From a virus (lineage: Duplodnaviria > Caudoviricetes): a DNA stretch of 33,342 bases. The notes below the pieces were generated by a model. That model searched no databases and was not told the DNA's origin. It was given only the letters and a program-made list of their open reading frames with translations. The position numbers and the translations under genes were made by a program. Below are positions 1,928 to 33,342 of the stretch, piece by piece; the first letter of the stretch is position 1; every line of letters starts with the position of its first letter. Where the stretch lies: positions 1 to 33,342 of the IMG/VR virus record IMGVR_UViG_3300037851_000691; one strand, given 5' to 3'.

Positions 1928-1972
1928 CGGTGATCGGGTGCTAACTTGTTGTTAGGTGAGCATGGGGCATGC

Positions 1973-2007
1973 AAAGGCCCGGCGTCTACGCGCCGGGCCT
2001 TTTCTTT
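1973..2007. terminator. Intrinsic terminator, probably bidirectional, between converging operons
   Basis: AAAGGCCCGGCG-loop-CGCCGGGCCTTT followed by TCTTT. Confidence 0.8.
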
Positions 2008-2071
2008 GTGCGGACGACCAACCTCGCCCTGGCGCGGCTCCACGGGCGCCAGGGCGAGGGAGGTGCGAAGG

Positions 2072-2365
2072 TCAGTCGTTCACCGGAGCAACCGGAACCA
2101 TTCTCAGGCTCCAATAGTCCGCGCAACGCGTGTCACAGTTGAGCATGTCGCCATTGAGGCGGCACTTCGCGCCGTTGGGCGGCAACACCTTGCCGGTGCC
2201 AGGCACCGGCCACGCTTCCACGCAGTCTACGTAATCCACTCCCACCGCGCACAGGCGGTAGAGCGGCGCTTCATCAGTCGGCGTGATGCCGACCACGCGG
2301 AACGTCGGTGTGACGCAGGCCACGGCGAACGCCAGTACAACGAGCGCGAACAGGACAATCTTCAT
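2072..2365 (-). CDS. Small Cys-rich putative lipoprotein/secreted protein
   Basis: MKIVLFALVVLAFAVAC signal/lipobox-like N-terminus; ATGA overlap with the upstream gene. Confidence 0.65.
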   Translation of the reverse strand: MKIVLFALVVLAFAVACVTPTFRVVGITPTDEAPLYRLCAVGVDYVDCVEAWPVPGTGKVLPPNGAKCRLNGDMLNCDTRCADYWSLRMVPVAPVND

Positions 2366-2814
2366 TTCCAAAATCCTTTCAGGTGTGAGAGAAGGCTCGT
2401 CTTGGGGCGGGGGCTCCACCAGCGGACGGGATCGGGTCCGACGAGCTCGGAAGCGACGGCTGGGGCGGCGGTGGAGGCGGGCGGCTTGTGCTTGCAGGTC
2501 ACTTCATGCCAGGATCCTTTCTCGGGTGGGCGGCGCATGGCCAGGCGGCGCCGCGCGGTGGCTTCGTTCTTCTCGCTGAACCAGCGCTCGACGTGCCAGC
2601 CGGCCCGGGCGGCGACGTACTGCGCCCAGTCGGCCTGGGCGTCACGGATGCGGATCGTGGCGCGCCAGAAGAGGGGGTGGTTGTCCTCTTTGTACACGTC
2701 CACGGAGACGCTCGAGCCGGGGAAGCGGTCGGTGGAGATCTGTTTGCGCACGCCGGTGGCGATCGCCTGACGGGAGGGCGCACATAGCGGGATGGCGACG
2801 GTGAAGGTTTTCAT
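2362..2814 (-). CDS. Hypothetical protein
   Basis: Coupled to neighbours by 4-nt overlaps at both ends. Confidence 0.7.
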   Translation of the reverse strand: MKTFTVAIPLCAPSRQAIATGVRKQISTDRFPGSSVSVDVYKEDNHPLFWRATIRIRDAQADWAQYVAARAGWHVERWFSEKNEATARRRLAMRRPPEKGSWHEVTCKHKPPASTAAPAVASELVGPDPVRWWSPRPKTSLLSHLKGFWK

Positions 2815-4388
2815 GCTGCGCTCCGTGATTTATAGCGGGGGTCGAGACCTCGGCGGCGGAGGGCCTCATTGATGCACTCGGCGGCGACGTAGTAGGCGCG
2901 ACCGCCGTCGTAGCCGAAGGTGTGGCGCTGGGCGGCCGAGAGGTTGCGGTCGGCGGCTAACCAGTTGTTATAGACCGTGGAGGCGAGCCACGGCGGCCAG
3001 TTGTCGGTGTCGGGTACGGGTATCGGTTTTCCGGTTCTGGCGGCCTCGTAGAGGGGGTCGGGGGCCGGGACGGGGGCCGGAATCGGTTCCAGAACCGCCT
3101 CCTGAACCGTTGAGGGCTGATCAGCAGAACCGAGGCCATCGGCTTCGGCATCGGCCGGGAGGGCCAGGCGGGGGCGGTAGATGGTCGAGTGGCGCAGGCT
3201 CTTGAGCTGGTTGGTGAGGGGAAACTGCACCCAGCCGTTGACCTGCGGGCAGTAGGCGCGCCCGATGGGCAGGTCGAGCAGCTGGTCGGTGACTTCCCGG
3301 CCGTAGACGGCGAAGCGGGCGGCCGTGGCGGTGTCCATGCGCATCATGAAGACGTGCGAGGCGTTGCGCATGAAGGCAGGGTCGAGGACGTCGGCGCGGG
3401 CGGTCTGGGTGCCGACGATGAACATAAAGCCGGCGTTGCGGCCCATGTTGACGAGGGCGCGCAGGCGCTTGCCGAACTCGCGGGCCAGGCGGGCGTCCGT
3501 GATGCTCAGATCGTCGGCGGCGGCCTCGGCCTCATCGACGACGACGACGACGTTGGGCGGGGCGTCGGGCCAGCGGTGATAGTCGGAGATTTTGAGCTCC
3601 TTCATCAGCTGGTCGCGGCGGTCCATCTCGGCGCGCAGGGCGACGACGGCGTCGAAGATCTCGCGGGGCTCGGAGATGACTTCGATGTCGGGCCAGTTGG
3701 AGGCGAAGCGGGAGAGGAAGATGTACTCGGCGCCGGGCAGGTTGCGCCGATAAGCCTCGATTATGTAGCGTAGCGTGTTGGTCTTGCCGCTGCCCTTCTT
3801 GCCGACGATCAGGGTGTCGGGGTTGTTCTGCGGATCGGGCTTGACGATGGCGCCGGGGTCGTAGTCCTGCGGGATGACCTCCGGCTCGGGGAGGAGCGCC
3901 TCGTCGTCGCGCGGGTTCATCAGGGCGCGGGCGACGCCGGCGGTGACGCGGCCGCGAGCGCCGAAGACGGCGTAGGCGACCTGGGCGTTGTGCTGGTTGG
4001 GCGCGGGCAGGAAGTAGGGCTCCGGGAGGGGCCGACCGGCGAGGGCGGCGGCCAGGTAGTCGGGCCAGCCCGGGCGGACGAGCAGGGAGGGCATCATGCC
4101 GCCTTGCAGCGGGTAGACGCGATCCACGCGGCGCAGGATGGCGCCGGCGACGGCGAGGGCGCCGATGGCGACGGCGACGCCGGTGCTGCTGACGGCGACG
4201 ACGCCGGCGCTGATGGCGGCCTGCTTGAGGACGAGCAGGTAGGGCTGGATGGCGGCGGACTGGGCCTGGTTGGCGGCCAGCGTCCAGGCGCGCATGGCCT
4301 GGACGGAGGGGTCGAGCTCGTAGACCAGGCGAGAGGCGCCGAGCAGGGCCAGGCCCACGGCGGCGACGGCGACGATGAACTCCTTCAT
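2811..4388 (-). CDS. Membrane-anchored FtsK/SpoIIIE/HerA-like P-loop ATPase
   Basis: Two N-terminal hydrophobic segments, Walker A GKKGSGKT, AEMDRR, Walker B VVVVDE, and GRNAG..IVGTQ motif typical of the FtsK/HerA superfamily. Confidence 0.85.
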   Translation of the reverse strand: MKEFIVAVAAVGLALLGASRLVYELDPSVQAMRAWTLAANQAQSAAIQPYLLVLKQAAISAGVVAVSSTGVAVAIGALAVAGAILRRVDRVYPLQGGMMPSLLVRPGWPDYLAAALAGRPLPEPYFLPAPNQHNAQVAYAVFGARGRVTAGVARALMNPRDDEALLPEPEVIPQDYDPGAIVKPDPQNNPDTLIVGKKGSGKTNTLRYIIEAYRRNLPGAEYIFLSRFASNWPDIEVISEPREIFDAVVALRAEMDRRDQLMKELKISDYHRWPDAPPNVVVVVDEAEAAADDLSITDARLAREFGKRLRALVNMGRNAGFMFIVGTQTARADVLDPAFMRNASHVFMMRMDTATAARFAVYGREVTDQLLDLPIGRAYCPQVNGWVQFPLTNQLKSLRHSTIYRPRLALPADAEADGLGSADQPSTVQEAVLEPIPAPVPAPDPLYEAARTGKPIPVPDTDNWPPWLASTVYNNWLAADRNLSAAQRHTFGYDGGRAYYVAAECINEALRRRGLDPRYKSRSAA

Positions 4389-4390
4389 GG

Positions 4391-5279: not shown

Positions 5280-5286
5280 GGCGGCC

Positions 5287-5484: not shown

Positions 5485-5495
5485 GGCGTCGGCTC

Positions 5496-5762
5496 CTAAG
5501 ATGTTGTTAGGTGCGCTGCCGGTGTAGCGGCTGCGGTTGGGCCTGTAACGGGGGTTACAAGGCAACCCTGGTGGAGAGCGAGGAGCGCCATGAACAGGCC
5601 GTTGAGCAGGGCGATGGCCAGGCCGCCACCGATCAGGTAGACGACGAAGACGCCGAAGCCGGGGATGTAGCCGAGCCGGAGCGCGCTGTGCAGGGCCAGG
5701 GCGCCGATGGCGATCTGGGCGGCGAAGGCCAGGCCGCAGATGCGGTAGAGGGTCGGGCTCAT
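5496..5762 (-). CDS. Small membrane protein (two hydrophobic segments)
   Basis: Two long hydrophobic stretches; 4-nt overlap with the upstream gene. Confidence 0.65.
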   Translation of the reverse strand: MSPTLYRICGLAFAAQIAIGALALHSALRLGYIPGFGVFVVYLIGGGLAIALLNGLFMALLALHQGCLVTPVTGPTAAATPAAHLTTS

Positions 5763-7736: not shown

Positions 7737-7756
7737 TGTGCTGTGTCCTTCCGAAC

Positions 7757-7808: not shown

Positions 7809-7841
7809 GTTCGTCCGCTAATAACGTATTAGCGGACGAAC
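7809..7841. repeat. Perfect 15-bp inverted repeat containing a CTAA-N7-TTAG site
   Basis: GTTCGTCCGCTAATA-acg-TATTAGCGGACGAAC, intergenic. Confidence 0.9.
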
Positions 7842-8614: not shown

Positions 8615-9895
8615 TCAGTCGTTGGTGTCGTCGTAGAGGGAGGATTGCAGGCCGGGGAGCTGAGCGGCGGCTTTGGCCCACTCGGTGTTCTTCTGGCCGG
8701 CCATGACGTGGTCGTAGCGGGTGGTGATGGCCAGGCTGCTGTGATGGAGCAGCTTGGAGCAGAAGCGCACGTCGGCGCCGCCGTTGGTGTAGAGCATGTA
8801 GGCGGAGTGGCGCAACGTGTGGACGTGGATCGGGTCGGCATCGAGGCCGGCGCGCCGGGCGTAGAACTTGAGCAGGCGGCCGACCTCGTGGCCGGAGATG
8901 GGCCCGGCGGAGGGCTGGGGGGCGTTGACTCCGAGGCGGGCGAGCCGGCGACGGCGCTCTTCGGGGGAGCTGGTGGCGGTGAAGATGTAGTCGCCGGGTT
9001 GGATGGTGGCCAGGCGGCCGGAAAGCTTGAGGAAGTCTTTCACGGCCCGCCAGGCGGGGGCGGGGAGCTCGTCCCAGCCTTCCTTGCCCTTGTTGCGCCA
9101 GTGATAGTAGACGGCGCCGTTCTGCTGGCGGAGGTCCTGCCAGCGCCAGACGCGAATCTCGCTGTTGCGGGCGCCAGTGAGGATGTAGCAGGTGAAGAGG
9201 GCCAGGTCACGGAGGCCGCGGGCGTTGCGCCGGGGAGACGAGGCGGCGTAGCTCTTGATGGCGCCGATGAGGGCGTCGAGCTGGTCGGCGTCGAGCCAGG
9301 TGGCGCTGGCGAACGCGTCGGAGCGGGGGCGGGGGATGCCGCGCGCTCGGGCGGGGTTGATGTCCTCGAAGAGCGGGATCTCGCGTCCGTCGAGGAGGGG
9401 GACGGGGTACTCGCCGGCGTAGGAGTAGAAGGAGCTGATGGCGGCGAGGTACTGGGCGATGGTGCCCTCGGAGAGGCCGAGCTGGTCGGCGGTGCGGCGG
9501 CCGTTGCGCTCGAGGCCGCGGGCGACGTGGCCGGCGATGGGGCGGGCGCGCAGATCGGCGAGCCAGGCGCGCACGTCGCCGGGGACGATGCGCCAGGGGG
9601 CCTTGTCCTGGGTGAAGAGGCGGAAGTCGAGCCAGGCGGCCTGATAGGCGCGGATGGTGGCGAGGGGCCGGGGCTCGCCGGTGCGGGGGGAGCGGGCGAG
9701 CCAGTCGTCGTAAGCGGCGGCCCAGAGGGCGGGCTTGTCCGCGTCGGGGATGGCGGGCGGCGGGGGCGCGACGAGGGCTTCACGCAGGGCGGCGATGAAG
9801 TCGCCGGGGGTGGGCCGGGCGTGGAGGGTGACTTCATCCGGTTCGATGACTTCGATGGTCCGGCCGGTGAATGGGACCAGGGCGGCTTCTGACAT
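8615..9895 (-). CDS. Tyrosine recombinase (XerC/D-like) in the early operon
   Basis: Catalytic set appears intact: TGARNSE (R), KGK (K), HTLRH, LHHSS, TTRY (Y); N-terminal SAM-like core-binding region. Confidence 0.92.
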   Translation of the reverse strand: MSEAALVPFTGRTIEVIEPDEVTLHARPTPGDFIAALREALVAPPPPAIPDADKPALWAAAYDDWLARSPRTGEPRPLATIRAYQAAWLDFRLFTQDKAPWRIVPGDVRAWLADLRARPIAGHVARGLERNGRRTADQLGLSEGTIAQYLAAISSFYSYAGEYPVPLLDGREIPLFEDINPARARGIPRPRSDAFASATWLDADQLDALIGAIKSYAASSPRRNARGLRDLALFTCYILTGARNSEIRVWRWQDLRQQNGAVYYHWRNKGKEGWDELPAPAWRAVKDFLKLSGRLATIQPGDYIFTATSSPEERRRRLARLGVNAPQPSAGPISGHEVGRLLKFYARRAGLDADPIHVHTLRHSAYMLYTNGGADVRFCSKLLHHSSLAITTRYDHVMAGQKNTEWAKAAAQLPGLQSSLYDDTND

Positions 9896-9912: not shown

Positions 9913-10248
9913 CTAAGAATGGGTTAGCGGCGCTGGGGTGAGTTCCTGCCAGCCGTACTGATAGCCGATGAGCCGGAAGGAGCGGTTGGTCTTCTCGGAG
10001 ATGCGGCGGATGTTGATGGGCAGCATCTCGGCGCCGGGCGGGACGGCGAAGGCCTCGGCGATGGCGGCGACGGTGTCAGGCGAGGGCGGGTCGCCCTCCC
10101 GGCCGATGGTGAGGCGGTGGGCGTCGCCGGTGCGGGCGAGGGTGATGTGGATGCCGTAGAAGAGGCGCTCGGCGCGGGCGGTGGGGCCATGGCCGGCGAT
10201 CTCGTGGCGCATCTGCTCGGCGAGTTGGTGGAGTCTGGGCTTGGTCAT
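9913..10248 (-). CDS. Hypothetical protein (MTKPRLHQL...)
   Basis: GGAG RBS before ATG 10248; the longer ORF call runs through a tandem repeat and is less likely. Confidence 0.65.
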   Translation of the reverse strand: MTKPRLHQLAEQMRHEIAGHGPTARAERLFYGIHITLARTGDAHRLTIGREGDPPSPDTVAAIAEAFAVPPGAEMLPINIRRISEKTNRSFRLIGYQYGWQELTPAPLTHS

Positions 10249-10816: not shown

Positions 10817-11032
10817 TTATTTGGTGATCAGGCTGATCTGCTCGAAGAAGGAGTCATCGGCGGGCCAGTTGAGGGTGGCCTTGATGGCGCTGAGCCACTC
10901 GCCGGTGGGGATGACCTTGCCGGTCTCCATGTTGGAGATCATGGTGTTGGGGATGTCGCAGCGGTCGGCGAGCTGCTGCTGGGTGAGACCTCGGGCTGTG
11001 CGAAGGACTCTAAGTTGGGTTGCGAAGTCCAT
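10817..11032 (-). CDS. cro: Cro-like XRE helix-turn-helix regulator
   Basis: LRVLRTARGLTQQQLADRCDIPNTMISNMETGK; first gene of the leftward early operon, divergent from cI. Confidence 0.8.
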   Translation of the reverse strand: MDFATQLRVLRTARGLTQQQLADRCDIPNTMISNMETGKVIPTGEWLSAIKATLNWPADDSFFEQISLITK

Positions 11033-11070: not shown

Positions 11071-11112
11071 TCTAAGACCCATAAAAAACGTCAGTAACAA
11101 ACCGTTACTATG

Positions 11113-11201: not shown

Positions 11202-11537
11202 GTGAACCTACTCGATCCTCATTCTCGCCTTGTTGCGGAGCGGGTGCACGAAGCGCGTGTCGTTTCCGGCCTGAGCCATAAGGACTTGGGTCAGAAGCTG
11301 GGCCTGACGGCCACTGGCTACGGACACTACGAGCGGGGCCGGCAGGCTTTCAGCATCGAGCAGCTCTTCGTCATCGCGCGCGTGCTGGATCGGCCGGTGG
11401 AGTGGTTTCTGGGGCTGAACTCGGAGCTGAGCGACGACGAGCTTCTGGCGCTGGGACTGTACCGGCGGGCGGTGCGGAATGGGGTTGGGGAGGCGGCGCT
11501 ACGGGTCCTGGGCGCGGTGGCGGGGGAGGAGGAATGA
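11202..11537 (+). CDS. cI: CI-like XRE repressor lacking an S24 autoprotease domain
   Basis: GLSHKDLGQKLGLTATGYGHYERG HTH; only 111 aa; divergent from cro. Confidence 0.8.
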   Translation: MNLLDPHSRLVAERVHEARVVSGLSHKDLGQKLGLTATGYGHYERGRQAFSIEQLFVIARVLDRPVEWFLGLNSELSDDELLALGLYRRAVRNGVGEAALRVLGAVAGEEE

Positions 11538-12168: not shown

Positions 12169-12300
12169 TGCGGCGCTAATACGGTCTTATGTGACTGAAT
12201 GAATGGCCGTGCCGTCCGCGGGGATGGGGTAGACCTGGGGCAGCACGGATGGGTGTGGATTGCCGGCCGTGCGGACGGGGGTCGGGGGATCTCGGCTCCT

Positions 12301-12345
12301 GGTTCGGGTCCGTGAGGCCGGAGGTTCAAATCCTCTCTCCCCGAC
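12301..12345 (+). other. attP: attP core: 3' half of tRNA-Pro(CGG)
   Basis: Anticodon loop TTCGGGT, T-arm GGAGG-TTCAAAT-CCTCT and acceptor strand CTCCCCG-A-C. No D arm upstream. Lies about 185 bp before the integrase. Confidence 0.85.
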
Positions 12346-12399: not shown

Positions 12400-12530
12400 G
12401 GTGATGCCGCCTCGGAGCTCCTCGTCTACCTCAGTCCGCACGGCCAGAGAAAAAAAGCCCACGTCCAACTCTTAGCGGCGCTATGCCGTGTATTAGGGGA
12501 CGACTATCGGGGCTACCGGAGGCTGCACGG

Positions 12531-13484
12531 ATGAAGGGCGTCTCTCTCTGTCTGTCACAGGTGATCGAGGGCTATCTGCTGGAGGCGCACGCCCGCCGGC
12601 TGAGCCCGGGGACGATCTCGGACTACTCCAACGCGTTCCGCAAGCTACAACGCTACCTCGCTGACGATCCTCCATTCGCGGCGATCGGGATCGAGCAGGT
12701 GCGCGGGTTCCTGGCGGATCTGGCGCAGATGACGGAGCCGAAGCCGCTGAGCAAGAAGGCGCTGCTGAACATCCACACGGGGCTGAGTGCGTTGTGGACG
12801 TGGGCGGTGCGGGAGGGGATCGTCGAGCGTCACCTGTTGCGCGATGTGCCGCGGCCGCGGGCGGAGACGCGGGCGGTAGAGCCGTTCAGCCAGGAGGATG
12901 TCAAGGCGCTGCTGGCAGTGTGCGAGCGCAGCGCGGCATATCGGCGGCCGGGGAAGGTGCTTTGCGACAACGAGCGGCCGACGGGGGTCCGGGATCGGGC
13001 GATGATCCTGCTGTTGCTGGACACGGGGATCCGGGCCAGCGAACTGTGCGGCCTTCAGCTGCGTCAGGTGGATTTAAAGAACCGGCATATCGTGGTGATG
13101 GGCAAGGGGAGCAAGGAGCGGCAATTGCCGATCTCGGCGCAAACTTCCAAAGCGCTGTGGAAGTATCTGGTCTCGGAGCGGAAGGATGCGCGGCTGAACG
13201 AGGAAGTGTTCGAGGGGCACTACGGGGGGCCGTTGACGCGCGATGCGCTGCTGAAGGTGCTGCGCCGGCTGGGCGAGCGAGCGGGGGTGGAGGGCTGCCA
13301 TCCGCATCGGTTCCGGCACACCTTTGCCATCCAGTACCTGCGCAATGGCGGGAACACGCTGGCGTTGCAGGCGAGCCTGGGGCATACGACGCTGGAGATG
13401 GTGCGGGTGTACGCGCAGATCGCCCAGGCGGATCTGGATAACGGGCATCTGGTGGCCAGCCCGGTGGCGAACTGGCGGCTATGA
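12531..13484 (+). CDS. int: Phage integrase (tyrosine recombinase)
   Basis: TGIRASE, KGSKER, HRFRH, LGH, VRVY motifs; GGAGG RBS; adjacent to attP. Confidence 0.92.
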   Translation: MKGVSLCLSQVIEGYLLEAHARRLSPGTISDYSNAFRKLQRYLADDPPFAAIGIEQVRGFLADLAQMTEPKPLSKKALLNIHTGLSALWTWAVREGIVERHLLRDVPRPRAETRAVEPFSQEDVKALLAVCERSAAYRRPGKVLCDNERPTGVRDRAMILLLLDTGIRASELCGLQLRQVDLKNRHIVVMGKGSKERQLPISAQTSKALWKYLVSERKDARLNEEVFEGHYGGPLTRDALLKVLRRLGERAGVEGCHPHRFRHTFAIQYLRNGGNTLALQASLGHTTLEMVRVYAQIAQADLDNGHLVASPVANWRL

Positions 13485-14068: not shown

Positions 14069-14113
14069 TGGGAGGGACGATCGTGGATTGTTCTTCGCAT
14101 AATCATCGCTTAG

Positions 14114-14725
14114 GTGCGCTGGCCGGGGGGCCCGGAATTGGAATCGCGCGATTTTGACGGTTTTACGGCAGAGGCGGGGGAGCCGGCGGGGGAGCCGGCG
14201 GGACGCGAGAAGGTGGACGGCTGGCTGCTTGGGGTTGAGAAGCCGCCGGCCTGGCTGGAGCTGTGGCGCGATTTGTGCGACGAGCGGGCGCCGGTGATCG
14301 GGGCGGATGGCGAGCTGGCGCTGAATGCGCGCGGGGAGGCCCGGGTCCGCAAACGCTGGAACTGGCGCCAGGCGTTGTATATCGCCTGGATGGCGACGCC
14401 GAAGCACAAGCGGGAACCGAAGACGCAAGACGAGCTCGCCGATCTGCTGGGGCTGGCCTCGACGGGTACGTTTCGCAACTGGCGCCGGGCGCATCCTGAG
14501 ATGGTGGAGCGGATTCAGCAGGTGCCGCGGGATCTCCTGGTGACGCACCTGGCGGATGTCTACGATGCGCTGGTGTATGTGGCGCGGAGCTACGACCCAC
14601 GGGCGCACCCTGATCGCAAGCTGTTCCTTGAGCTGGTGGGCGAGTACACACCGAAGGCGGAGCTGAAGAGCGATGTGACGGTCAATGCGCCGGTGGCATT
14701 GTTGCCGGAAGCGGACGATGACTGA
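14114..14725 (+). CDS. terS: Terminase small subunit (HTH type); start uncertain
   Basis: TQDELADLLGLASTGTFRNWRR HTH; directly upstream of and overlapping terL. Confidence 0.7.
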   Translation: MRWPGGPELESRDFDGFTAEAGEPAGEPAGREKVDGWLLGVEKPPAWLELWRDLCDERAPVIGADGELALNARGEARVRKRWNWRQALYIAWMATPKHKREPKTQDELADLLGLASTGTFRNWRRAHPEMVERIQQVPRDLLVTHLADVYDALVYVARSYDPRAHPDRKLFLELVGEYTPKAELKSDVTVNAPVALLPEADDD

Positions 14726-16049
14726 CAGCGGCGCGCCGTGGTCGCCGCATGCGGGGCCGCAGATGGCGTTTCACCGCTCGAAGGCGTTCGAGGTGTTGTA
14801 CGGCGGGGCGGCCGGCGGCGGGAAGAGCGACAGTTTGCTGATGGAGGCGCTGCGCTATGCCCACGTGACGGGGTACACGGCGATCATCCTGCGGCGGACG
14901 TATGCGCAGCTGAGCCAGGCGAACGCGCTGATCCCGCGCAGCCGGGAGTTGTTGACGGATCGGGCGCGCTGGAACGAGGAGCGCAAGACGTGGACCTTTC
15001 CGAGCGGGGCGACGGTGCAATTCGGCCACATGCAGCACGAGGGCGACAAATACAACTACCAGGGGGCGGCGTTTGCGTTCGTGGGCTTCGATGAGCTGAC
15101 CCAGTTCGAGGAGGAGCAGTACATGTACCTCTTCAGCCGGGCCCGAACGACGGCGAAGCTGCCGGATGGGCGGGCGATCCCGGTGCGCGTGCGGGCGACG
15201 ACGAACCCGGGCGGCGATGGGCACGAGTGGGTGAAGCGGCGCTGGGGGGTGTGGCTGGGGGATCAGCCGACGGCGCAGAGCGGGGAGGTCCGCTGGTATC
15301 GCAACGTGGGAGGCACGGACGAGGAGACGACTGCCGGCGATCCGCAAGGGTTGAGCCGGCAGTTTATTGCGGCGAGCCTGCGCGACAACCCGACGCTGCT
15401 GGCGAATGACCCGGTGTACGTGCAGCGGCTCGAGGCGTTGCCGCTGATCGAGCGGGAGCGGCTGCTGAACGGCAACTGGCAGATCGGGCCGCAGGGGAAC
15501 GTGTTCCGGCGGGAGTGGTTCCGGGTGACGCCGGCGGCGCCGGCCGGGCTGAAGTGGGCGCGCTACTGGGACCTGGCGGCGAGCGTCAAGGACACGGCGG
15601 ATTACACGGCTTCGGTGGCGGCGGCGCTGGCCGACGATGGAACGCTGTATCTGCGGGACATGATCCGAGGCCGGTGGGAATGGCCGGACCAGGAGACGAT
15701 CATCGTGCAGACGATGCTGGCGGATCCGAAGTGCGTCCACGGCGTGGAGAAGGCGCTGCACGGGATTGCGGCGGTGCAGACGTTGCTGCGCCGGCGGGAG
15801 CTGGGCAGGATCGTCGTCAAGGGCGTGGATGTGGACCGGGACAAGCTCACGCGGGCGTTGCCGCTCTCGGCCCGGGCGGAGCAGGGCAAGGTGGCCCTCG
15901 TCGAGGGGGCCTGGATCGGGGCGTTTCTCGACGAGCTGACGGCCTTCTCCGGGGACGGGAAGACGCATGACGACCAGGTGGATGCGGCGAGCGGCGGGCT
16001 GGCGCTCTTGACGGGCGATCCGCGGACGCGCAAGGGCTACGCTTGGTAA
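14718..16049 (+). CDS. terL: Terminase large subunit
   Basis: YGGAAGGGKS Walker A, FDE Walker B, TTNPGG, WDLA and HDDQVDA nuclease motifs. Confidence 0.95.
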   Translation: MTDSGAPWSPHAGPQMAFHRSKAFEVLYGGAAGGGKSDSLLMEALRYAHVTGYTAIILRRTYAQLSQANALIPRSRELLTDRARWNEERKTWTFPSGATVQFGHMQHEGDKYNYQGAAFAFVGFDELTQFEEEQYMYLFSRARTTAKLPDGRAIPVRVRATTNPGGDGHEWVKRRWGVWLGDQPTAQSGEVRWYRNVGGTDEETTAGDPQGLSRQFIAASLRDNPTLLANDPVYVQRLEALPLIERERLLNGNWQIGPQGNVFRREWFRVTPAAPAGLKWARYWDLAASVKDTADYTASVAAALADDGTLYLRDMIRGRWEWPDQETIIVQTMLADPKCVHGVEKALHGIAAVQTLLRRRELGRIVVKGVDVDRDKLTRALPLSARAEQGKVALVEGAWIGAFLDELTAFSGDGKTHDDQVDAASGGLALLTGDPRTRKGYAW

Positions 16050-16076
16050 TCGCTTATTAGCGGAGCAGGAGGGGAG

Positions 16077-17447: not shown

Positions 17448-18284
17448 GTGGGGCAACGGGCCGTCATTGCAGTCATCAACGACACCCACACCGGCTCGGC
17501 GCTGGCGCCATTTCCGGGGGACGCGTGGGAACTGGCGGATGGAAATTGTCTCATGCCGAACGCATGGCAGCAGACGCTGGGGGCGCACTGGGAGGAGTGC
17601 TGGCGGCTGGTTGGGGCGGCGCGCCGGCGCTCTCGGCTGATCATCTGGCACGTGGGGGATGCGACGGAGGGCGTCCACCACGACATGATGCAGATCCACA
17701 GCAATCTGGCCGAAGAGCAAGAGCGGATGCACCTGGCGCTGATGCGGCAGGCGCTGGCGCTGGCGCATTTCAACCCACGGACGGACTCGCTCACCTATTT
17801 CTGCGGGACGCCGGCGCATGGCGATGTGGAGCGGATCGCCCGGGAGCTGCTCGACGCGGACAAGGAGGACGGCCGGCTGGCGACGCCGTACCTGCTGGCC
17901 AGCGTCAACGGCTGCCTGTTCGACGTGGCGCACGAGGGGTTCAGCGAGGGCACGCGCGAGTGGACGCGCGACAACACGATGCGTGCCTACCTAACAAGCC
18001 GTTATCTGTCGAGCCTGAAGCACGGCCGGCCGATGCCGCGCTACGTGCTGCGGGCGCACCGGCATCGTTGGCGGGTGGCGGATGTGCGCGACGACGACGG
18101 GCGGATCATCAGCGAGGGGATGCTGCTGCCGGCGTGGAAGCTGCGCGATGCGTACATCTACCGCAAGTATCCGGAGGGCATCAGCCAGGTGGGAATGGTG
18201 GTGTTCGAGGTGGAGGCGGACGGGGCGAGCCGTTGGCGGGGGCTGACGATGCGGGTCGAGCAAGACGAGGTGATGGAGCTGTGA
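17448..18284 (+). CDS. Calcineurin-like metallophosphoesterase-fold protein
   Basis: DTH, GDATEG, GTPAH, VAH and AHRH motifs in metallophosphoesterase order. Confidence 0.65.
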   Translation: MGQRAVIAVINDTHTGSALAPFPGDAWELADGNCLMPNAWQQTLGAHWEECWRLVGAARRRSRLIIWHVGDATEGVHHDMMQIHSNLAEEQERMHLALMRQALALAHFNPRTDSLTYFCGTPAHGDVERIARELLDADKEDGRLATPYLLASVNGCLFDVAHEGFSEGTREWTRDNTMRAYLTSRYLSSLKHGRPMPRYVLRAHRHRWRVADVRDDDGRIISEGMLLPAWKLRDAYIYRKYPEGISQVGMVVFEVEADGASRWRGLTMRVEQDEVMEL

Positions 18285-18535
18285 CCACGATCTCTCACGA
18301 CGAAGCATACACGGCGTTGCAAGAACTGGTGGAGCTGCTGCGGCCGCATGTCCTGCCCGAGAAGGGGCCGGACGAGTTCACGGTGGCGGAGCTGGCCGAG
18401 GCGATCGGCGTCGAGGTGAACCACATGAAGCTCGTGTTGGATCGCCAGGTGCGCGAGGGGATATTGACCTGCCGGGAAGTGCGGACGCAGGCGCGCCGGA
18501 AGGCGACGGCGTACCGGAGAGCGCGGGATGCCTGA
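18281..18535 (+). CDS. Small winged-HTH protein
   Basis: GTG start overlapping the upstream stop; FTVAELAEAIGVEVNHMKLVLDRQVREG. Confidence 0.65.
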   Translation: MTTISHDEAYTALQELVELLRPHVLPEKGPDEFTVAELAEAIGVEVNHMKLVLDRQVREGILTCREVRTQARRKATAYRRARDA

Positions 18536-19595
18536 ACCAACGCCGACGATCGGGGGCCCGACGATCGGGCGCATTTACCGGACGGCGCTGAAGCAGCGGG
18601 CGGCGTTGTTGCGCGGCGAGCGCCAGGCGGCGGGCGAGCTGGTGCGCGCGTACGGCGGGGTGTGGGAGCGCATCCGGGGCCGGATCGAGGCGCTGCTGGC
18701 GGAGCGGGAGGCGGCGCTGGCGCGCGGGGAGCGGGTAACGGCGGCGTGGCTGTGGCAGTACGAACGGATGACGACGTTGGAGCGCCAGGTCGAGCAGGAG
18801 ATGTGGGGTTTCGCCCGGACGGCGGGCGTGACGATCGCCGAGCAGCAGCGGGCGGCGGTGGCGCTGGCCGAAGAACACGTGTTCGAGCAGGTGGCGGGCG
18901 GACTGGTGCAGCTCAACCGGCTGCCGACGGAGGCCGTGGTGGACCTGGTCGGGTTCACCGGCGACGGCAGCCCGTTGCGCGAGCTGCTCGACGCCCTGGG
19001 ACCGCAGGCGTCGGCGCACGTGCGCGATGCGCTGATCCAGGGGGTGGCGCTGGGGAAGAACCCGCGGGCGATCGCCCGGGAGACGCGGTCGGCGTTCGGA
19101 AGGACGCTGAGCCGGGCGCTGACGGTGTCACGGACGGAGACGCTCCGGGCGTATCGCGAGGCGACGCGGCGCAACTACCAGGAGAACTCCGACGTGGTGC
19201 GGGGCTGGATCTGGGTGTGCGCCTGCACGCCGCGCAGCTGCGCGGCGTGCTTTGCGATGCACGGGACGGTGCACGGGGCGAACGAGCGGCTGGACGGCCA
19301 CCCGAATTGCCGCTGCGTGATGGCGCCCTACACCTACGCGGTGGCGGGGATGGCGGAGCAGGAGCTGCCGGACGCCGGGCCGGAGGTGTTCGCCAAGTTG
19401 AGCGAGGAGGACCAGGTGCGGGTGCTGGGGCCGGCGGCGGCGGCGGCGTATCGGGCGGGTGCGGTGCGGCTGGAGGACTTCGTCGGGCGGCGCCGCAGTC
19501 GGGATTGGGGCTCGACGCGGTACGCCAAATCGCTGGGGGCGGTGGTGGGGCCGGAGCAGGCGCGGGAATGGACGGCGAAGGCGCTGGGACGCTAA
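18528..19595 (+). CDS. Minor head protein (SPP1 gp7 / Mu gpF family)
   Basis: SRTET, CAAC..MHG and HPNCRC motifs. Confidence 0.88.
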   Translation: MPEPTPTIGGPTIGRIYRTALKQRAALLRGERQAAGELVRAYGGVWERIRGRIEALLAEREAALARGERVTAAWLWQYERMTTLERQVEQEMWGFARTAGVTIAEQQRAAVALAEEHVFEQVAGGLVQLNRLPTEAVVDLVGFTGDGSPLRELLDALGPQASAHVRDALIQGVALGKNPRAIARETRSAFGRTLSRALTVSRTETLRAYREATRRNYQENSDVVRGWIWVCACTPRSCAACFAMHGTVHGANERLDGHPNCRCVMAPYTYAVAGMAEQELPDAGPEVFAKLSEEDQVRVLGPAAAAAYRAGAVRLEDFVGRRRSRDWGSTRYAKSLGAVVGPEQAREWTAKALGR

Positions 19596-19697
19596 GGCGT
19601 TGTTAGGTGGGCAGCAGGTACAACGCGTGGGGCGCACGGGGTGCGTGATATGGTGGGGATGACACGGCGGAGAGATTCCGCCAACAAGGAGGGCGTG

Positions 19698-20219
19698 ATG
19701 CCTGACGGTTCTGAACAGGGGGGCCTGGGAGCAGGGGAGCAGGCGGGAGCCGAGACCACGAGCTTCGAGAGCTTCTACGGTGGATTGGATGAGACGGCCA
19801 AGGGGCTGATTGACGGGCACATCACCGGGCTGCGGTCGGCGCTGGACAGCGAGAGGCAGCAGCGCAACGGCCTGGCGAAGCAGATCAAGGAGCTGGCCGC
19901 CAAGGCGGAGAAGGGGTCGGAGCTGGAGAAGCAGCTGACCGATGCGTCCGCTAAGCTCGAATTAGCGGAGCGCCGTGCTACGTTCTACGAGGACGCGGCG
20001 CAGCCTCAAATCGGTTGCACGAACGCCAAGCTGGCGTTCATCCTGGCGCAGACGGAGAACCTGTTCGATCGCCAGGGCCGGCCGGACTGGGCAGCGATCA
20101 AGAGCACGGCGCCGGAGTTGTTTCGCTCGAGCGTCGGCTCGGCGGATGGGGGCGCCGGCGGGCAGAAGCGCACGGCGCTGGACATGAATGCGGCGATCCG
20201 CCGGGCGGCGGGACGCTGA
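19698..20219 (+). CDS. Capsid scaffolding protein
   Basis: Coiled-coil, C-terminal DMNAAIRRAAGR, directly upstream of the capsid gene; AAGGAGG RBS. Confidence 0.75.
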   Translation: MPDGSEQGGLGAGEQAGAETTSFESFYGGLDETAKGLIDGHITGLRSALDSERQQRNGLAKQIKELAAKAEKGSELEKQLTDASAKLELAERRATFYEDAAQPQIGCTNAKLAFILAQTENLFDRQGRPDWAAIKSTAPELFRSSVGSADGGAGGQKRTALDMNAAIRRAAGR

Positions 20220-22478: not shown

Positions 22479-22515
22479 TCGCCGCCTAATGTGTTGTTAG
22501 CTGACGGAGGCGCAG

Positions 22516-25575: not shown

Positions 25576-25605
25576 CGCCGCTAAGGGAAGGTTAGGAGAC
25601 AGGAA

Positions 25606-25827: not shown

Positions 25828-25828
25828 C

Positions 25829-26188: not shown

Positions 26189-26598
26189 TGCCGGTCGAGT
26201 TCAATCATTTCCCGCTGATCGCCGACCGGCTCGAGAGCGGGGCGCGCCCGGTGGTGCAGACGACGATCAAGCGCATCGAGGCGTCCGCTAAGAAGTCGTT
26301 AGGGGGGCCACGGACGGGCATCGTCTACCGGGTCGGCGGGACGAAGGATCGGCCGATCTTGCACCAGGCGAGCGCGCCGGGCGAACCGCCGGCGACGGAG
26401 ACGGGGAACCTGGCGAATTCGATCACGTCGCAGATGCTGGACAGCCGCACGGGGATGGTGAGCGTGGGGGCGGAGTACGCCGCGCCGTTGGAGTTCGGCA
26501 GCGCGCGGGGGCTAGCGCCACGGCCGTTCCTGACGCCGGCGGTCGAGCGCAACTGGCCGGACTTCCTGGCGGCCATGGAAAGGCTATTGACGCCGTGA
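26188..26598 (+). CDS. HK97 gp10-family tail-component protein
   Basis: SAPGEPPATETGNL, YAAPLEFG and PRPFLTPA motifs. Confidence 0.85.
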   Translation: MPVEFNHFPLIADRLESGARPVVQTTIKRIEASAKKSLGGPRTGIVYRVGGTKDRPILHQASAPGEPPATETGNLANSITSQMLDSRTGMVSVGAEYAAPLEFGSARGLAPRPFLTPAVERNWPDFLAAMERLLTP

Positions 26599-28306: not shown

Positions 28307-28524
28307 GGGTCCGGGAGCTGCGCCGCTGGCTGCTGACCGAGGGCGAGCTGGGCCAGTGCCCGGACTACTACCCGGTGATCAGGGCGGCGCGTTACCTCGG
28401 GGTGGCGCCGTGGGAGCTGAATGCGCAGCCGCTCGCTTGGCAGGAATGGGCGCTGGTGTGCGAGGCGGCGGAGATCGGGGCGCAGAACGAGGCGGCGCAG
28501 GAAGCGGTGAGGAAGCGGCGCTAA
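28297..28524 (+). CDS. -1 frameshift extension of the chaperone (gpGT-like)
   Basis: Slippery G GGA AAA at 28297-28303; the -1 frame reads GKIGVRELRRWLL...AARYLGVAPWEL...RKRR* to TAA 28522-28524. Confidence 0.8.
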   Translation, partial: GKIGVRELRRWLLTEGELGQCPDYYPVIRAARYLGVAPWELNAQPLAWQEWALVCEAAEIGAQNEAAQEAVRKRR

Positions 28525-28569
28525 GTCCTCATTAGGCCCGCTGACGGGAGCCCGCTTGAAGGGGGACAT

Positions 28570-30090
28570 GTGGTTGTAGCAGCGAGACTCAGTGCAATTG
28601 TACACGCCGACACCGGGAAGGCGACCAGCGACATTCGGGCATTTGGCGCTGAGGTGATGACCACCGGAAAGACGGTGGATACGCAGACGCGCAACATGGA
28701 CATGGCGTTCTCCGGGGTGATGCGCGGCATCGGGACAATCGCCGGGGTCGGGTCGCTGAGCGCGCTGGCATTGGGCGCCGGGCGCGCCGTGATCGAGCTG
28801 GGGAATCTCGGCCAGGAGCTCAACAAGCAGCGGGCGTATTTTGACGTGTGGTCCGGCGGAGCAGCGAACGCGGCTGCCAACATGGAGGCCATGCGCGCGG
28901 CAGTCGGCAACAGCATGACCGAGATGGAGATGATGACGGCTGCCAATCAGCTCTTGAGCATGGGGCTGGCGAAGACGCCGGAGGAGCTGCGCAAGCTGTC
29001 GGAGATGGCGGTGATGCTGGGCGGTTCGACCCGGTCGGCAGGGGAGGCGATCAACGAATTCTCTCTGTTGCTGGCGAATCAGAGCATCTTGCGGCTGGAT
29101 ACGTTCGGGATCTCCGGGGCGCGGGTGCGCGAGCGCATTGAGGAGCTGCAAGCGGCCGAGGAGGGGTTGAGCCGGGAGCAGGCGTTCATGAACGCCGTGA
29201 TGGAGATCGGCACGCAGAAGGTATCCGCGCTGGCGGCGGCGGGAGTGGACGCAACCACGGCGACGCAGGATCTGACGACGGCCTGGGGCCAGGCGCGGGA
29301 GGAGATCGCGGCCGGCTTGGATACGGCCGGGGTGACTGCGGAGCTGGCGCGCATTGTGAGCGGGGTCGGTACGGCGATCGGGGCCAGCCTCGGCGGCGAG
29401 TCCTCCGTGCTGAAGGTGCTGCAACAGGACCTGGCCTATCTGCAACAGCAACGAGATGCGATCGAGGCGGGCGGCGGGCTGTTCAAGGGCGCGCGTCTCA
29501 ACGAGCTCGACCAGCAGATCGCCGCGGTGACGGCGCGGATCCAGGAATATACCACGGTGACCGCCGGCATGGCGACGGGGACGCAGCAGGTGGCTGACGG
29601 GCTGCGCGAGGTGGGCGCAGCGGCGGCCGAGATAGACACCACCGCCATCACAGAGGCCAGTACGGCGATCGAGGATCTGACGGCGAAGGTAGACAAGCGC
29701 ATCGAAGTGGCGCTGACCGGCGATCTCTCCGGCACTGAGTTGGTGCTGGAAGGCGCGCAAGCGGCCGGATTCGCCGAGCAATTCAAGAACGACATTTTGA
29801 AGGCGGTCGCGGAGATCGCCGGGAAGGCGCCCACGATCTATGACGAGCTCGTCAACGGCGCAGCGACGGCTATGGCCGCGAAGGACAATACCAGTATTGT
29901 GCCGGCGCTGGCGGAGGCGATCTCTAGGGACCTGAGCACGAGTGCGGCGCTGATCCAGAACCAGGGCGGGCAGGCGTGGGTGCTGCTCGAGGCGGGGATC
30001 CTGGCGAAAGCGTCGGCGAGTGGGGTGTTGCGCGCGGCGATCCAGGCGGCGCTGGATGCGTTGACGGAAGAGTACACCAGCGGGCGCTAA
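28570..30090 (+). CDS. Tape measure protein (short, 506 aa)
   Basis: Ala-rich helical, LDTFGI motif; follows the chaperone pair. Confidence 0.85.
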   Translation: MVVAARLSAIVHADTGKATSDIRAFGAEVMTTGKTVDTQTRNMDMAFSGVMRGIGTIAGVGSLSALALGAGRAVIELGNLGQELNKQRAYFDVWSGGAANAAANMEAMRAAVGNSMTEMEMMTAANQLLSMGLAKTPEELRKLSEMAVMLGGSTRSAGEAINEFSLLLANQSILRLDTFGISGARVRERIEELQAAEEGLSREQAFMNAVMEIGTQKVSALAAAGVDATTATQDLTTAWGQAREEIAAGLDTAGVTAELARIVSGVGTAIGASLGGESSVLKVLQQDLAYLQQQRDAIEAGGGLFKGARLNELDQQIAAVTARIQEYTTVTAGMATGTQQVADGLREVGAAAAEIDTTAITEASTAIEDLTAKVDKRIEVALTGDLSGTELVLEGAQAAGFAEQFKNDILKAVAEIAGKAPTIYDELVNGAATAMAAKDNTSIVPALAEAISRDLSTSAALIQNQGGQAWVLLEAGILAKASASGVLRAAIQAALDALTEEYTSGR

Positions 30091-30129
30091 TTTGCTGTTA
30101 GCGGACGAGGGCCTCTGCGGAGGGGCGGA

Positions 30130-31482
30130 ATGGCCGACTTTCAATACCTGAGCGGTAGCACATGGACGGATGTGCCGGCGCTGGCGCACCCCGATGACGA
30201 CACGGGCTCCGTGCGGGTGGTGTTCCCGGCGGCGACGGACCGGGACGGCAACGGGGCGCCGTGCGGGATCATCGGGTTGCCGGAGGTGGAGATCATCGCC
30301 GATGTGATGCGCGGGACGGGCTGGGACTTCTGGCAAGACTTTTTCGCCGACGAGCTGGTGGAGACGGCGGACGTTTCGCTGAAGGTGTTCAACGAGCGGG
30401 CGGGTGACTGGATCGCCTATGCGGGCGATCTGCTGCGGCCGACGTGTGAGCGGATTCGGCCGGGGGCGACGGCGCTGGCCACCGAATACCGGGGGGTGGT
30501 GATCCGGGCAATCAACCTGGTGGAGCGCAGTGCGCCGGCGATCGGCAGCCAGCCCGAGGACGCCTACGAGATGACGGGCGGGACGGCGACCTTCGTGGTG
30601 TCAGCGGTCGGCGGGACGCTGACGTATCAGTGGCAGGTGGACACCGGGGGCGGCTGGGCGAATGTTAGCACCGGCACGGGCGGGACGTCTGCGTCTTACA
30701 CCACGGCGACGCTGGTCGGGTCGGACAACGGCAACCTGTACCGCTGCCTGGTGACGAACGCTTACGGCACGACGACCTCCGATTCGGCCACACTGACGGT
30801 GACAAGCACGCTGGCGTCGAAGTTCACGGCCTACTGGGACTTCTACGAGGACGCCACGGACGCGGTGGGCGAGAATGACCTCACCGGCACCATCGAGGGC
30901 TACACCGGCAACAAGGCGAATTTCGAGGCGAGCAGCTCGCACTCGTTGACGGGGACGTCGGCTATCAACAGCGACGAGGGCGGCACCATCATGGGGTGGG
31001 TGCAACTGGAATCGTTGCCCAGCTCCGGCGATTATTTCTACGTCATGGCGACGACGCCAGAGGCCGGCGACAGTAAAGCCGGTTTCAAGATCTACATCGG
31101 CAGCACCGGCACGATCACGGGCAAGTTCACGAAGGACAACAGCACCGACACGGCGGACATCAACCTGCGGGGCAACCCGAACGTGGCCGAGATGTTCTTC
31201 TGCTTCCAGTTCGACCTGGCGGCCGACGAGATCCGGGGGTGGTCGAGCATGAACGACGACGAGGTTCCGGAGTTCAACGCCTCGACGCCGGAGGGTCTGA
31301 CGTTTACGCCGGCGGGCGGCGACGAAGCGCCGATCTTCGGCAAGAACCCGGCCAGCACGACCTTCTATCTCGACGGCACACTACGCTGTGTCGGCTGGAC
31401 GAACGAGATCCTGACGGAAGGAGAGATCGAAACGATGTACAACGCCGGGACGCCGCTGCGTCATGCGGAGATCGAATCGTGA
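30130..31482 (+). CDS. Distal tail protein-like fusion with Ig-like and LamG/ConA-like domains
   Basis: Follows TMP; QPED...GGTATF...LTYQW...NGNLYRC.VTN is an Ig I-set-like pattern; C-terminal AYWDF..., EILTEGEI..MYN is LamG-like. Confidence 0.7.
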   Translation: MADFQYLSGSTWTDVPALAHPDDDTGSVRVVFPAATDRDGNGAPCGIIGLPEVEIIADVMRGTGWDFWQDFFADELVETADVSLKVFNERAGDWIAYAGDLLRPTCERIRPGATALATEYRGVVIRAINLVERSAPAIGSQPEDAYEMTGGTATFVVSAVGGTLTYQWQVDTGGGWANVSTGTGGTSASYTTATLVGSDNGNLYRCLVTNAYGTTTSDSATLTVTSTLASKFTAYWDFYEDATDAVGENDLTGTIEGYTGNKANFEASSSHSLTGTSAINSDEGGTIMGWVQLESLPSSGDYFYVMATTPEAGDSKAGFKIYIGSTGTITGKFTKDNSTDTADINLRGNPNVAEMFFCFQFDLAADEIRGWSSMNDDEVPEFNASTPEGLTFTPAGGDEAPIFGKNPASTTFYLDGTLRCVGWTNEILTEGEIETMYNAGTPLRHAEIES

Positions 31483-33342
31483 GCACCTGGACGCAGGCCT
31501 TCGGCAACGCCAAGCGCACGTCATGCGTGACGGAGGGGCCGGGCAGCACGGCGCTGTATTGCCAGTGGTACACGACCTTCGAGCCGTACGTGCACCCGTG
31601 GGTGCAGCCGATAGGCGACACGGACGGCAACGTCTATGTCGCCACGTCGGCGGGGTTGCACAAGATTGACGCCTCCGACGGCTCGGTGATCTGGAGCTAT
31701 GCGGGGCGCTACGCCAGCACGCCGGCCTGGGACGATGGCTATGTGTATGCGGCGCTGACAGACGGGCGGATCATCTGCCTCAACGCCACCTCCGGGGCGC
31801 TGGTGTGGACGTGGGACGATGCGACAGCGGGCTTCGACGCCGCCCTGCTGGTGTCGGTGGACGGGACGAAGCTCGTGGCGCCCTGCCGCGATGGGCGGGT
31901 GTACTGCGTCACGGCCTCGACGGGCGCGCTGGCATGGCAGTATCCCAGCGCAGGTAATGATCCCTTAGCGCCCTTCAACTCGCCGGCGGCGGAGTACAGC
32001 GGCAGCGTCTACATCCTCAACAATGACATGTACCTGCGCAAGCTCTCGCTGAGCACGGGCGCATTGCAGGACACCTCGGCCAAGCTACTCGGTGAAGCGT
32101 TCCGCGGCCAGCCGCCGGTGATCGACGGCGTGAACGGGTTCATCTACGTACCGAGCGGCGCGCCGCTATGCAAGCAGGGGTGGTCGGACGGCGTGACGTG
32201 GCGCGTGGACGACCAGACCGACTTCTGGACGGGGGCCACGGGCGGCGACCTGTGCGGCGTGACGACCGAGTCCGGCTTCGACGTCTACGACTATTCGGTG
32301 GCCGGCGACGCCACGCAGACGGTGATCGAGTTCGTTACCGCCAACCCGGATCGCGTGACGATGCAGGTGCTCGACCTCACGTCGCTGGACGAGTACGACC
32401 TGGGCGCAACGTATGACAACTGCCGGGTGCCGTTCATGCCGTGCCACACGAACAGCGGCAGCCGCTGGCCGTGCGCGGTGAGCGACGCCGGGGACGTGTA
32501 TGTCACCAACTGGCGCTACAGCCCGGATGTGAGCCTCGCCACTTCGGCAGGCGTGTTCAAGTGGGATGTCGGGACGCCGCGCTTCATCCACATGGACTAC
32601 TCGCCTGCCTGGGATGAGCCGCTCTGGTTCACCCTGAGCGACGGCGGCGACTACTTGCACGGCAGCCTGTGCGAGAATCGGACGGCGTTCGGCATTGACG
32701 TGGCGACGCCGGATGTCACCGACTACTGGACATATGGCGATGTGGGTGAGGGCCTGACGGCGATTGCGCCGGGGTGGGACGACAACCTCATCTGGACCAC
32801 AGACAACCCGGTCGGTACAACGTGGTCGTGTGACGGCACAAACAAGAACGGCAACGTGGGCTGCGCGGCCGTCTACACGGCGCTGCCCGTGCCGGTCGGC
32901 AATTTCCTTTATGCGCTGGCCTCTAACACGTTGGTCTGTCTTGGCACAACCGTTACGACGACCGGGACGCGGGCCGCCACGTTGGCGGCGGAAGAGTTCA
33001 CGCCGAGCGTGACGTTGGACGCCGCCGACGCCGTGGATTTGCTGGAAGCAGCGCTGGCGTTCGTGAACACGGCAAGCCCGGAGCACTACCGGCCCGGCTA
33101 CGTCAATCACCTAAACAGTGAGCATGACAACAACAATAGCGATACGACCACCCACCTCTTCGTTGGGACAGGGATGTATGGCCGCTGGATTGACGAAACC
33201 CTGACGCCGCTGTTGCGCGCCTATCCCTACGTATCATCCGCACTGCAAGACAAAATCCGCGCCTATGTCAAAGCGGAGTTTGAGGCTTGGTCGTGCCTCA
33301 GTAATTACTCGTGGATTCCCAACGACGGCAGCGGGCACGGCG
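31479..33342 (+). CDS. PQQ/BamB-type beta-propeller tail protein, 3'-truncated (absent from the ORF track)
   Basis: GTG overlapping the upstream stop; MSTWTQAFGNAKRTS..., repeated blades IDASDGSVIW, LNATSGALVW, VTASTGALAW; frame open at the window end. Confidence 0.8.
   Translation, partial: MSTWTQAFGNAKRTSCVTEGPGSTALYCQWYTTFEPYVHPWVQPIGDTDGNVYVATSAGLHKIDASDGSVIWSYAGRYASTPAWDDGYVYAALTDGRIICLNATSGALVWTWDDATAGFDAALLVSVDGTKLVAPCRDGRVYCVTASTGALAWQYPSAGNDPLAPFNSPAAEYSGSVYILNNDMYLRKLSLSTGALQDTSAKLLGEAFRGQPPVIDGVNGFIYVPSGAPLCKQGWSDGVTWRVDDQTDFWTGATGGDLCGVTTESGFDVYDYSVAGDATQTVIEFVTANPDRVTMQVLDLTSLDEYDLGATYDNCRVPFMPCHTNSGSRWPCAVSDAGDVYVTNWRYSPDVSLATSAGVFKWDVGTPRFIHMDYSPAWDEPLWFTLSDGGDYLHGSLCENRTAFGIDVATPDVTDYWTYGDVGEGLTAIAPGWDDNLIWTTDNPVGTTWSCDGTNKNGNVGCAAVYTALPVPVGNFLYALASNTLVCLGTTVTTTGTRAATLAAEEFTPSVTLDAADAVDLLEAALAFVNTASPEHYRPGYVNHLNSEHDNNNSDTTTHLFVGTGMYGRWIDETLTPLLRAYPYVSSALQDKIRAYVKAEFEAWSCLSNYSWIPNDGSGHG

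Follow-up and report, generated by a model that had tools for sequence, protein, structure and literature searches.

A genome-wide array of tyrosine-recombinase-type sites with distinct spacers in a phage family, and its possible part in genome circularisation

Core sites and recombinases of the window

The window analysed here is the entire virus record IMGVR_UViG_3300037851_000691, 33,342 nucleotides (nt) long with a completeness rated at 82%. It is the genome of a temperate siphovirus-like phage encoding two tyrosine recombinases, here called Int1 and Int2, and along its whole length lies an array of palindromic core sites, TAA-N7-TTA. A pattern count finds 19 of these sites, 11 of them in the form CTAA-N7-TTAG (Table 1); an earlier sequence-only reading had listed the same places, the TAA beginning one base after its coordinates. 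With any other spacer length from 0 to 15, the window has 0-4 matches. From trimer counts, 0.14 TAA-N7-TTA would be expected (Poisson probability about 1e-33), and the motif stands at the top of 1344 spaced palindromes. Markov models of orders 1, 2, 3 and 5 gave means of 0.10-0.30 sites with a maximum of 3 (200 runs each), and a codon-preserving shuffle gave a mean of 0.36 and a maximum of 2 (300 shuffles). The range of 0.10-0.36 across these nulls agrees with the earlier estimate of less than one site by chance.

The spacers of all 19 sites are mutually different, as had been noticed from the sequence. Among the 14 sites passing a profile filter, the nearest spacer pairs have 2 mismatches, whichever orientation is compared; this filter lost 5/19 window sites, and the plain pattern rule was used instead. 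No spacer begins with A on either strand (0/38). The sites are evenly spaced, with a coefficient of variation of the gaps of 0.41 and a widest gap of 3095 nt. This evenness was reached by 0/20000 uniform draws and is also improbable for draws from gene ends (P 0.00015). According to our gene calls, 8 sites are intergenic, 5 provide a stop codon and 6 lie within genes. The sequence-only reading had counted seven, six and six: the six within genes stand, and the first two figures would be right if the short open reading frame (ORF) 28356-28535 is real.

Two groups of palindromes stand somewhat apart. Between cro and cI, positions 11045-11107 hold three overlapping short palindromes, candidate operators, with site 7 among them. 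Because it sits among the other cro-cI palindromes and has non-consensus arms, site 7 may be an operator rather than a member of the array. At 4868 and 5546 there are two TAA-N6-TTA that, in contrast to the array sites, have one G-rich spacer in common and flanks that match; they may be a regulatory repeat of another kind.

Table 1. Core sites and other features of the window
Feature	Position	Strand	Remark
Core site 1 (TAA-N7-TTA)	1942..1954	.	intergenic
Core site 2	2958..2970	.	within FtsK-like gene
Core site 3	3751..3763	.	within FtsK-like gene
Core site 4	5497..5509	.	stop of 5496-5762(-)
Core site 5	7819..7831	.	~800 nt beyond Int2 3' end; most symmetric arms
Core site 6	9914..9926	.	just upstream of Int2 start; stop of 9913-10260(-)
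Site 7	11095..11107	.	between cro and cI; non-consensus arms
Core site 8	12177..12189	.	intergenic
Core site 9	14100..14112	.	just before putative small terminase
Core site 10	16047..16059	.	stop of large terminase
Core site 11	17992..18004	.	within 17448-18284(+)
Core site 12	19593..19605	.	stop of MuF-like gene
Core site 13	19952..19964	.	within 19650-20219(+)
Core site 14	22487..22499	.	intergenic
Core site 15	25582..25594	.	intergenic; 5993-nt contig of run X1 starts at 25581
Core site 16	26289..26301	.	within neck gene 26188-26598(+)
Core site 17	28522..28534	.	intergenic, or stop of short ORF
Core site 18	30088..30100	.	stop of 28654-30090(+)
Core site 19	31955..31967	.	within 31479-33341(+)
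Int2, tyrosine recombinase	8615..9895	-	426 aa; leftward operon, after cro
Int1, XerD-like integrase	12483..13484	+	beside tRNA-derived attP
tRNA-Pro-like sequence, 3' part, likely attP	12295..12345 (limits approximate)	+	no TAA-N7-TTA within
FtsK-like ATPase, hydrophobic N-terminus	2811..4388	-
Putative small terminase	14114..14725	+	assigned by position; no family match
Large terminase (TerL)	14685..16049	+	Terminase_6N/6C, psiM2_ORF9 family; not HK97 cos type
SPP1 gp6-like portal	16077..17438	+
MuF-like minor head protein	18528..19595	+
Cro-like HTH protein	10817..11032	-
CI-like HTH protein	11202..11537	+	not common to array-bearing relatives

The dif and attI cores both consist of TAA and TTA arms around a spacer, and the geometry of the sites supports the earlier assignment to this tyrosine-recombinase type. 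Of the two recombinases in the window, Int2 carries the catalytic set R243, K269, H359, R362, H385 and Y394. In 42 proteins of its family, five of these residues are present in 42/42 and H385 in 41/42. Pfam matches Int2 to a SAM-like domain and Phage_integrase alone, and no arm-binding domain was found. A structure model of Int2 (predicted local distance difference test, pLDDT, 82.7) has its best fold matches in XerH, XerA and Cre; in structural alignments with Cre the TM score is about 0.5 and the identity about 16%. The sequence profile is nearest to XerA, followed by a XerC-like protein and XerD, and the match to XerA (E 6e-31) far exceeds that to Cre (3e-6), placing Int2 outside the Cre family. 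It scores 27.7 against the integron integrase model, whose cut-off is 265, and is not of the IntI family. By its residues and predicted fold, Int2 is a simple Xer/Cre-like tyrosine recombinase. Its position in the leftward operon, after cro, suggests that it is transcribed early in infection.

Int1 is likely the integrase proper of the phage, judging from its sequence and surroundings. The neighbouring tRNA-Pro-like segment is likely its attP: loose contig ends fall at 12301/12314, and a relative, G003 (records are referred to by our own handles), has a tRNA-Pro beside Int1.

Association of the sites with Int2

The motif ATAA-N6/7-TTAT is present in 30/30 viral records found through Int2, compared to 2/18 found through the window terminase. 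Phages bearing Int2 form two groups, the larger with a single symmetric TAA-N6/7-TTA near the gene and the other with an even array of 9-23 sites. Arrays are present in 24 records including the window, with phage-specific arms and spacers of 6 or 7 nt; 19 of these records have Int2 (window counted, three partial) and 5 have no visible Int2. The array is a real feature common to a phage family. In the single-site phages, the site lies at most 1 kb from the Int2 3' end in 19/26, and site 5 of the window is likely the counterpart of this single site.

The sequence of the arms follows Int2. Among 18 arrays, the arm profile tracks Int2 identity (Mantel r 0.45, p 0.0007), with no such relation to TerL (r -0.10). 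For Int1 the correlation, over 16 arrays, is weak (r 0.22, p 0.044), compared to 0.43 for Int2 on those 16. No Int1 is seen in 15/37 site-bearing Int2 records, and the arrays of G012 and G060 have no Int1 match. Conversely, 8/9 near-complete records with Int1 and without Int2 show no array-like excess. These controls come from 50 new, longer records searched from 80 Int1 loci that an alignment-based search returned; an Int1 search from a single sequence returned nothing.

The repressors probably do not account for the sites. G009, which has the head genes and CI/Cro (47-50%) in common with the window but lacks Int2, contains 5 clumped matches with no common arms; four array relatives have no CI/Cro match. 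CI and Cro are therefore unlikely binders, as is the stoperator-like binding by CI alone that had been raised as an alternative. A motif of the host, the other alternative raised, is also disfavoured: there is no enrichment in 5 bacterial genomes carrying related prophages, the window's own host being not identified, and in the genome G004 all 4 motif matches lie on the phage contig. Scans starting from the motif gave 227 loci, nearly all due to chance, and yielded two known arrays and a new fragment, G006. A further 14 metagenome loci for which no whole record could be obtained were kept out of the counts; L103, L105 and L114 among them show excess sites.

Some observations weigh against Int2 as the partner of the sites. 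Over all 37 records, mostly single-site, the correlation of arms with Int2 is not significant (r 0.08, p 0.19). Int1 is the more XerD-like of the two recombinases. No Int2 is seen in five array records, G006, G078, G086, G088 and G114. The first of these is a 16-kb fragment, and in the remaining four Int1 lies at the end of a contig. Over 10 kb, G114 has 99.98% identity to G115, a record that does carry Int2; G086, despite a completeness rating of 100%, starts within the FtsK-like frame. Weighing the co-occurrence and the arm sequences together, we consider it very likely that Int2 binds the sites, the assignment the sequence-only reading had favoured.

Several features of the relatives bear on the sites or their enzyme. 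The circular record G002 (L179, L180) has 6-nt spacers at seven sites and 7-nt spacers at seven others, all with the same arms, which suggests that one enzyme tolerates both lengths. The G003 site at 16139 is missing at the aligned position in G061, indicating that sites turn over in position. In G015 and G026 (L432, L450) a serine integrase replaces Int1, and Int2 and the single site are retained. Repeated spaced motifs beside Int2 relatives at L064 (63-67 copies) and at L112 and L113 (about 40) are probably repeat arrays such as CRISPR. On chromosomal contigs C1, C3 and C4 of G004, an 11-nt unit is repeated in numerous short inverted arrays, which are REP-like and unrelated to the phage sites.

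Site number and packaging type

The number of sites is linked to the terminase. Arrays are present in 0/23 Int2 records with Terminase_1, which we take to be the HK97 3'-cos type, compared to 19/29 with other terminases. Five of the 23 were assessed by pattern counts alone, and the records are related to each other, so that the counts are not independent and Fisher values overstate independence. The HK97 3'-cos group is among the terminases listed in an account in which cohesive ends are ligated (PMC5000459). When the array label is placed on 42 genomes, it requires 3 changes on the TerL tree, compared to 10 on the Int2 tree and 13.8 when shuffled; both are FastTree trees of the same 42 genomes, with several long branches. 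G024, a cos phage with a single site, groups with the array phages G001 and G002 (96/100) and shares their arm sequence. Arms follow Int2 and array presence follows TerL, which indicates that site sequence is tied to the recombinase and site number to packaging.

A rule based on the portal, in which an HK97 portal implies one site, had been set out before counting. It was correct for G060 and 8 new cos phages, G057, G058 and G070 were uninformative, and it failed for G061 and G062, which counts against the circularisation proposed below. The rule was refuted by G085, G088, G095 and G112, which have arrays together with an HK97-type portal, and the terminase rule replaced it.

Several records also weigh against the terminase link, or against headful packaging as the property behind it. 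Eight non-cos Int2 records have a single site (G016, G019, G020, G023, G034, G062, G087 and G100), G021 has two, and G058, a 9.9 kb fragment, has none. In six of the non-cos records with few sites, the site lies ~9-11 kb upstream of the terminase genes, a position that does not fit a P1-like logic. The TerL of G021 is 73% identical to that of the array record G006. In four arrays, TerL has a lambda gpA-like domain match and ~25% identity to SPO1-like phages, and for these four headful packaging is not established. Seven of the single-site non-cos TerLs belong to two adjacent clades that also include a Mu-like phage; given this clustering, these seven phages may package differently. Palmer, a 34% relative of the single-site non-cos TerLs, has been called pac-type by homology, which speaks against such a difference.

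Proposed circularisation, alternatives and known systems

Based on the sites with their even spacing and distinct spacers, and on the links with Int2 and the terminase, we suggest that the 19 sites are crossover sites of the phage's own Int2. The phage would package by headful, with ends permuted over the map and a terminal redundancy of several percent. Int2 would be produced early from the linear DNA after injection and join two copies of one site, one in each copy of the redundancy, to give a circle. With permuted ends, a lone site would serve few virions and evenly spaced sites most of them, at least one site falling in both copies of the redundancy. Distinct spacers would prevent crossover between different sites and hence gene deletions. 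Cos phages close the circle by their sticky ends, where headful phages inject more than one genome length and have to recombine the repeated ends; the single site of the cos relatives would then represent the simpler condition and serve to make or resolve multimers of the genome. On comparative grounds we regard it as somewhat more likely than not that Int2 circularises the injected DNA through its terminal redundancy. The wider proposal is favoured slightly less, though still above even: that this widespread family substitutes a self-encoded recombinase and 10-20 mutually orthogonal sites, spaced to the redundancy so that most if not all permuted virions could close their genomes, for homologous recombination, that the array is gained or lost with terminase swaps, and that the FtsK-like motor may help to join the ends.

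The packaging genes of the window are a non-cos TerL of the psiM2 family, 40% identical to that of psiM2, an SPP1-like portal and MuF; psiM2 itself is presumably a headful phage. A redundancy of 4, 6 or 10% would duplicate a site in 70, 92 or 100% of window virions. The first 8 arrays are all evenly spaced, and in 4/4 circular records the evenness continues over the junction of the ends. The largest gap of an array spans 8.6-19% of its contig (median 11.6%; 20 arrays of 27-65 kb), and the mean gap increases with length (rho 0.48, p 0.03). Identical spacers within a genome occur in 0/1785 pairs, compared to 3.2 expected from between-genome rates (P 0.04). Orthologous spacers drift under conserved arms, which fits a site that needs to match just its own copy. 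For SPP1, a 45.9 kb DNA is reported for a 44.0 kb genome, with the redundancy essential for re-circularisation (PMC6316719). This redundancy of about 4% is smaller than the largest array gaps, a point against closure at the sites. We also looked for annealing recombinases in Int2 records and controls together: ERF was present in 0/46, RecT in 2/46 (both controls, same phage), Sak4 above cut-off in 0/50 and Sak in 0/50. Because the controls are almost without them too, their absence is uninformative.

P1 Cre acts on the terminal redundancy of P1, and P1 carries one lox site. The window phage resembles P1 in having a phage-encoded simple tyrosine recombinase and a symmetric core site near its gene, and its single-site relatives also have the one site of P1. 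It differs in the number of sites (9-23 in the arrays, 19 in the window), which are spread genome-wide with distinct spacers of 6-7 nt, in its additional tRNA integrase, and in Int2, which belongs to another recombinase family. By analogy, the array would work like Cre/loxP without being a member of that system. Linear DNA that P1 heads deliver is closed by Cre through recombination of two lox sites (PMC2841073). SPP1 and P22 share with the window phage the problem of circularising through terminal redundancy, and SPP1 also the type of portal. They use homologous recombination, in contrast to the site-specific route proposed here; in P22, Erf recombines the redundant ends.

An alternative is that Int2 acts at single sites as a swivel or on sister copies, relaxing, unlinking or multimerising the DNA, perhaps driven by the FtsK-like motor. 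The intact catalytic set and the even spacing suit such a topological role. The FtsK-like gene accompanies 18/23 array records, compared to 3/27 single-site records (1/18 cos and 2/9 non-cos). FtsK_gamma matches are found in 2/13 FtsK-like C-termini, and the window's own tail has none; an atlas search with the FtsK tail gave no usable match. However, recombination between sisters needs one site, and the replicating cos phages keep one. A topological role also gives no reason for gaps that scale with genome length or for the link to TerL, and we consider it unlikely, if the best of the alternatives.

Slightly less likely still is module shuffling, in which the sites would be position-specific crossovers by which co-resident phages swap blocks of genes, like the pdif modules of Acinetobacter plasmids. 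Identical spacers mediate exchange between pdif modules (PMC13141974). A contig of run X1 begins exactly at site 25581, beside a region of lower depth, and G001 and G025 diverge beside 3/5 shared sites, with 3/5 spacers identical. However, these spacers agree at 30/35 positions, a level that does not exceed background, and one of them has 4/7 positions differing between identical arms. Homology ends fall near sites in 21/468 cases; 12.1 are expected from a uniform null (p 0.024) and 22.2 from gene ends (p 0.62), with few close pairs available. The relatives in run X3 break at 255, 2834, 5360 and 6269, all away from sites. Contigs of 3 runs compared with the window show no joints between sites among the matches listed, in data that are noisy; X1 may be the sample from which the window came. 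Shuffling would also leave the terminase link unexplained.

We give little credence to a non-catalytic role for bound Int2 as a roadblock or an anchor of loops (SMC or Wadjet unloading, a block to nucleases or transcription). XerD unloads SMC, and the genome-wide even spacing, with 5-6 sites at stop codons, would suit such a role. However, all array phages conserve the catalytic residues, and binding would need no avoidance of identical spacers, yet avoidance is seen; the terminase link is again unexplained. The sequence-only reading had argued that non-matching spacers would bar ordinary recombination and that the role may be architectural. This argument has lost ground: each site has a matching partner in the terminal redundancy or in a sister genome, the catalytic residues are retained (42/42), and models of relaxation, looping, SMC unloading or roadblocks do not predict that array presence follows TerL. 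Equally improbable is binding by another protein, be it the terminase at multiple pac-like sites, CI/Cro, Int1, or a host Xer or LysR: it would suit the link of arrays with TerL, site 11095 in the immunity region, the XerD-like Int1 with its weak tracking of the arms, the five arrays without visible Int2 and the LysR box T-N11-A, which the motif fits, and is opposed by arms that follow Int2 rather than TerL and by the CI/Cro, host and Int1 controls above.

The array also has partial counterparts among other known systems. With XerCD/dif and the Acinetobacter pdif sites, the array shares the TAA-spacer-TTA geometry and an FtsK-like partner gene nearby. Many pdif sites with varied spacers occur on one replicon and react when spacers match (PMC13141974). 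In contrast to dif and pdif, whose XerC and XerD arms are asymmetric and set by the host enzymes, the array phages use one phage enzyme, Int2, which scores far under the XerC/D model cut-offs, with arms that are symmetric, phage-specific and track Int2; the window has a 7-nt spacer and even tiling that includes gene interiors; and array sites show no excess of mosaic junctions over the gene-end null, with few close pairs. The integron attI shares the TAA-N7-TTA geometry, but the window has no cassette array structure and Int2 is not an IntI. The stoperators of mycobacteriophage L5 are asymmetric and oriented with transcription, unlike the palindromic arms of the array, which does not travel with CI/Cro.

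If the circularisation proposal is true, it would add a third route for headful phages, besides homologous recombination and the single loxP of P1. The motif pattern would be tied to the mode of packaging, and site spacing would predict the length of the redundancy from sequence. It would also provide dozens of recombinases not yet characterised, each having arms of its own and 10-20 naturally selected spacers predicted not to cross-react. For Cre, spacer orthogonality had to be engineered, and 16 LoxPsym spacer variants are described that one recombinase uses without cross-reaction (PMC10850332). Those sites are synthetic and palindromic; in the array the spacers occur naturally, are not palindromes, and are predicted to be orthogonal. 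In the literature, with subscription journals covered incompletely, we found no earlier description of such phage arrays.

The region 23063-25581 of the window is lower in GC and tail-associated. Contigs of run X1 fragment there, with a depth of 5-6 compared to 8-9 elsewhere, which suggests a variable module with its right edge at site 15. Related loci were found in Chloroflexota, in an Anaerovoracaceae genome and in a Cloacimonadota bin. A G skew on the + strand is strong at 3000-20000 and 25000-31000, independent of gene direction (0.15 in plus genes and 0.23 in minus genes), and is near zero at 20000-25000.

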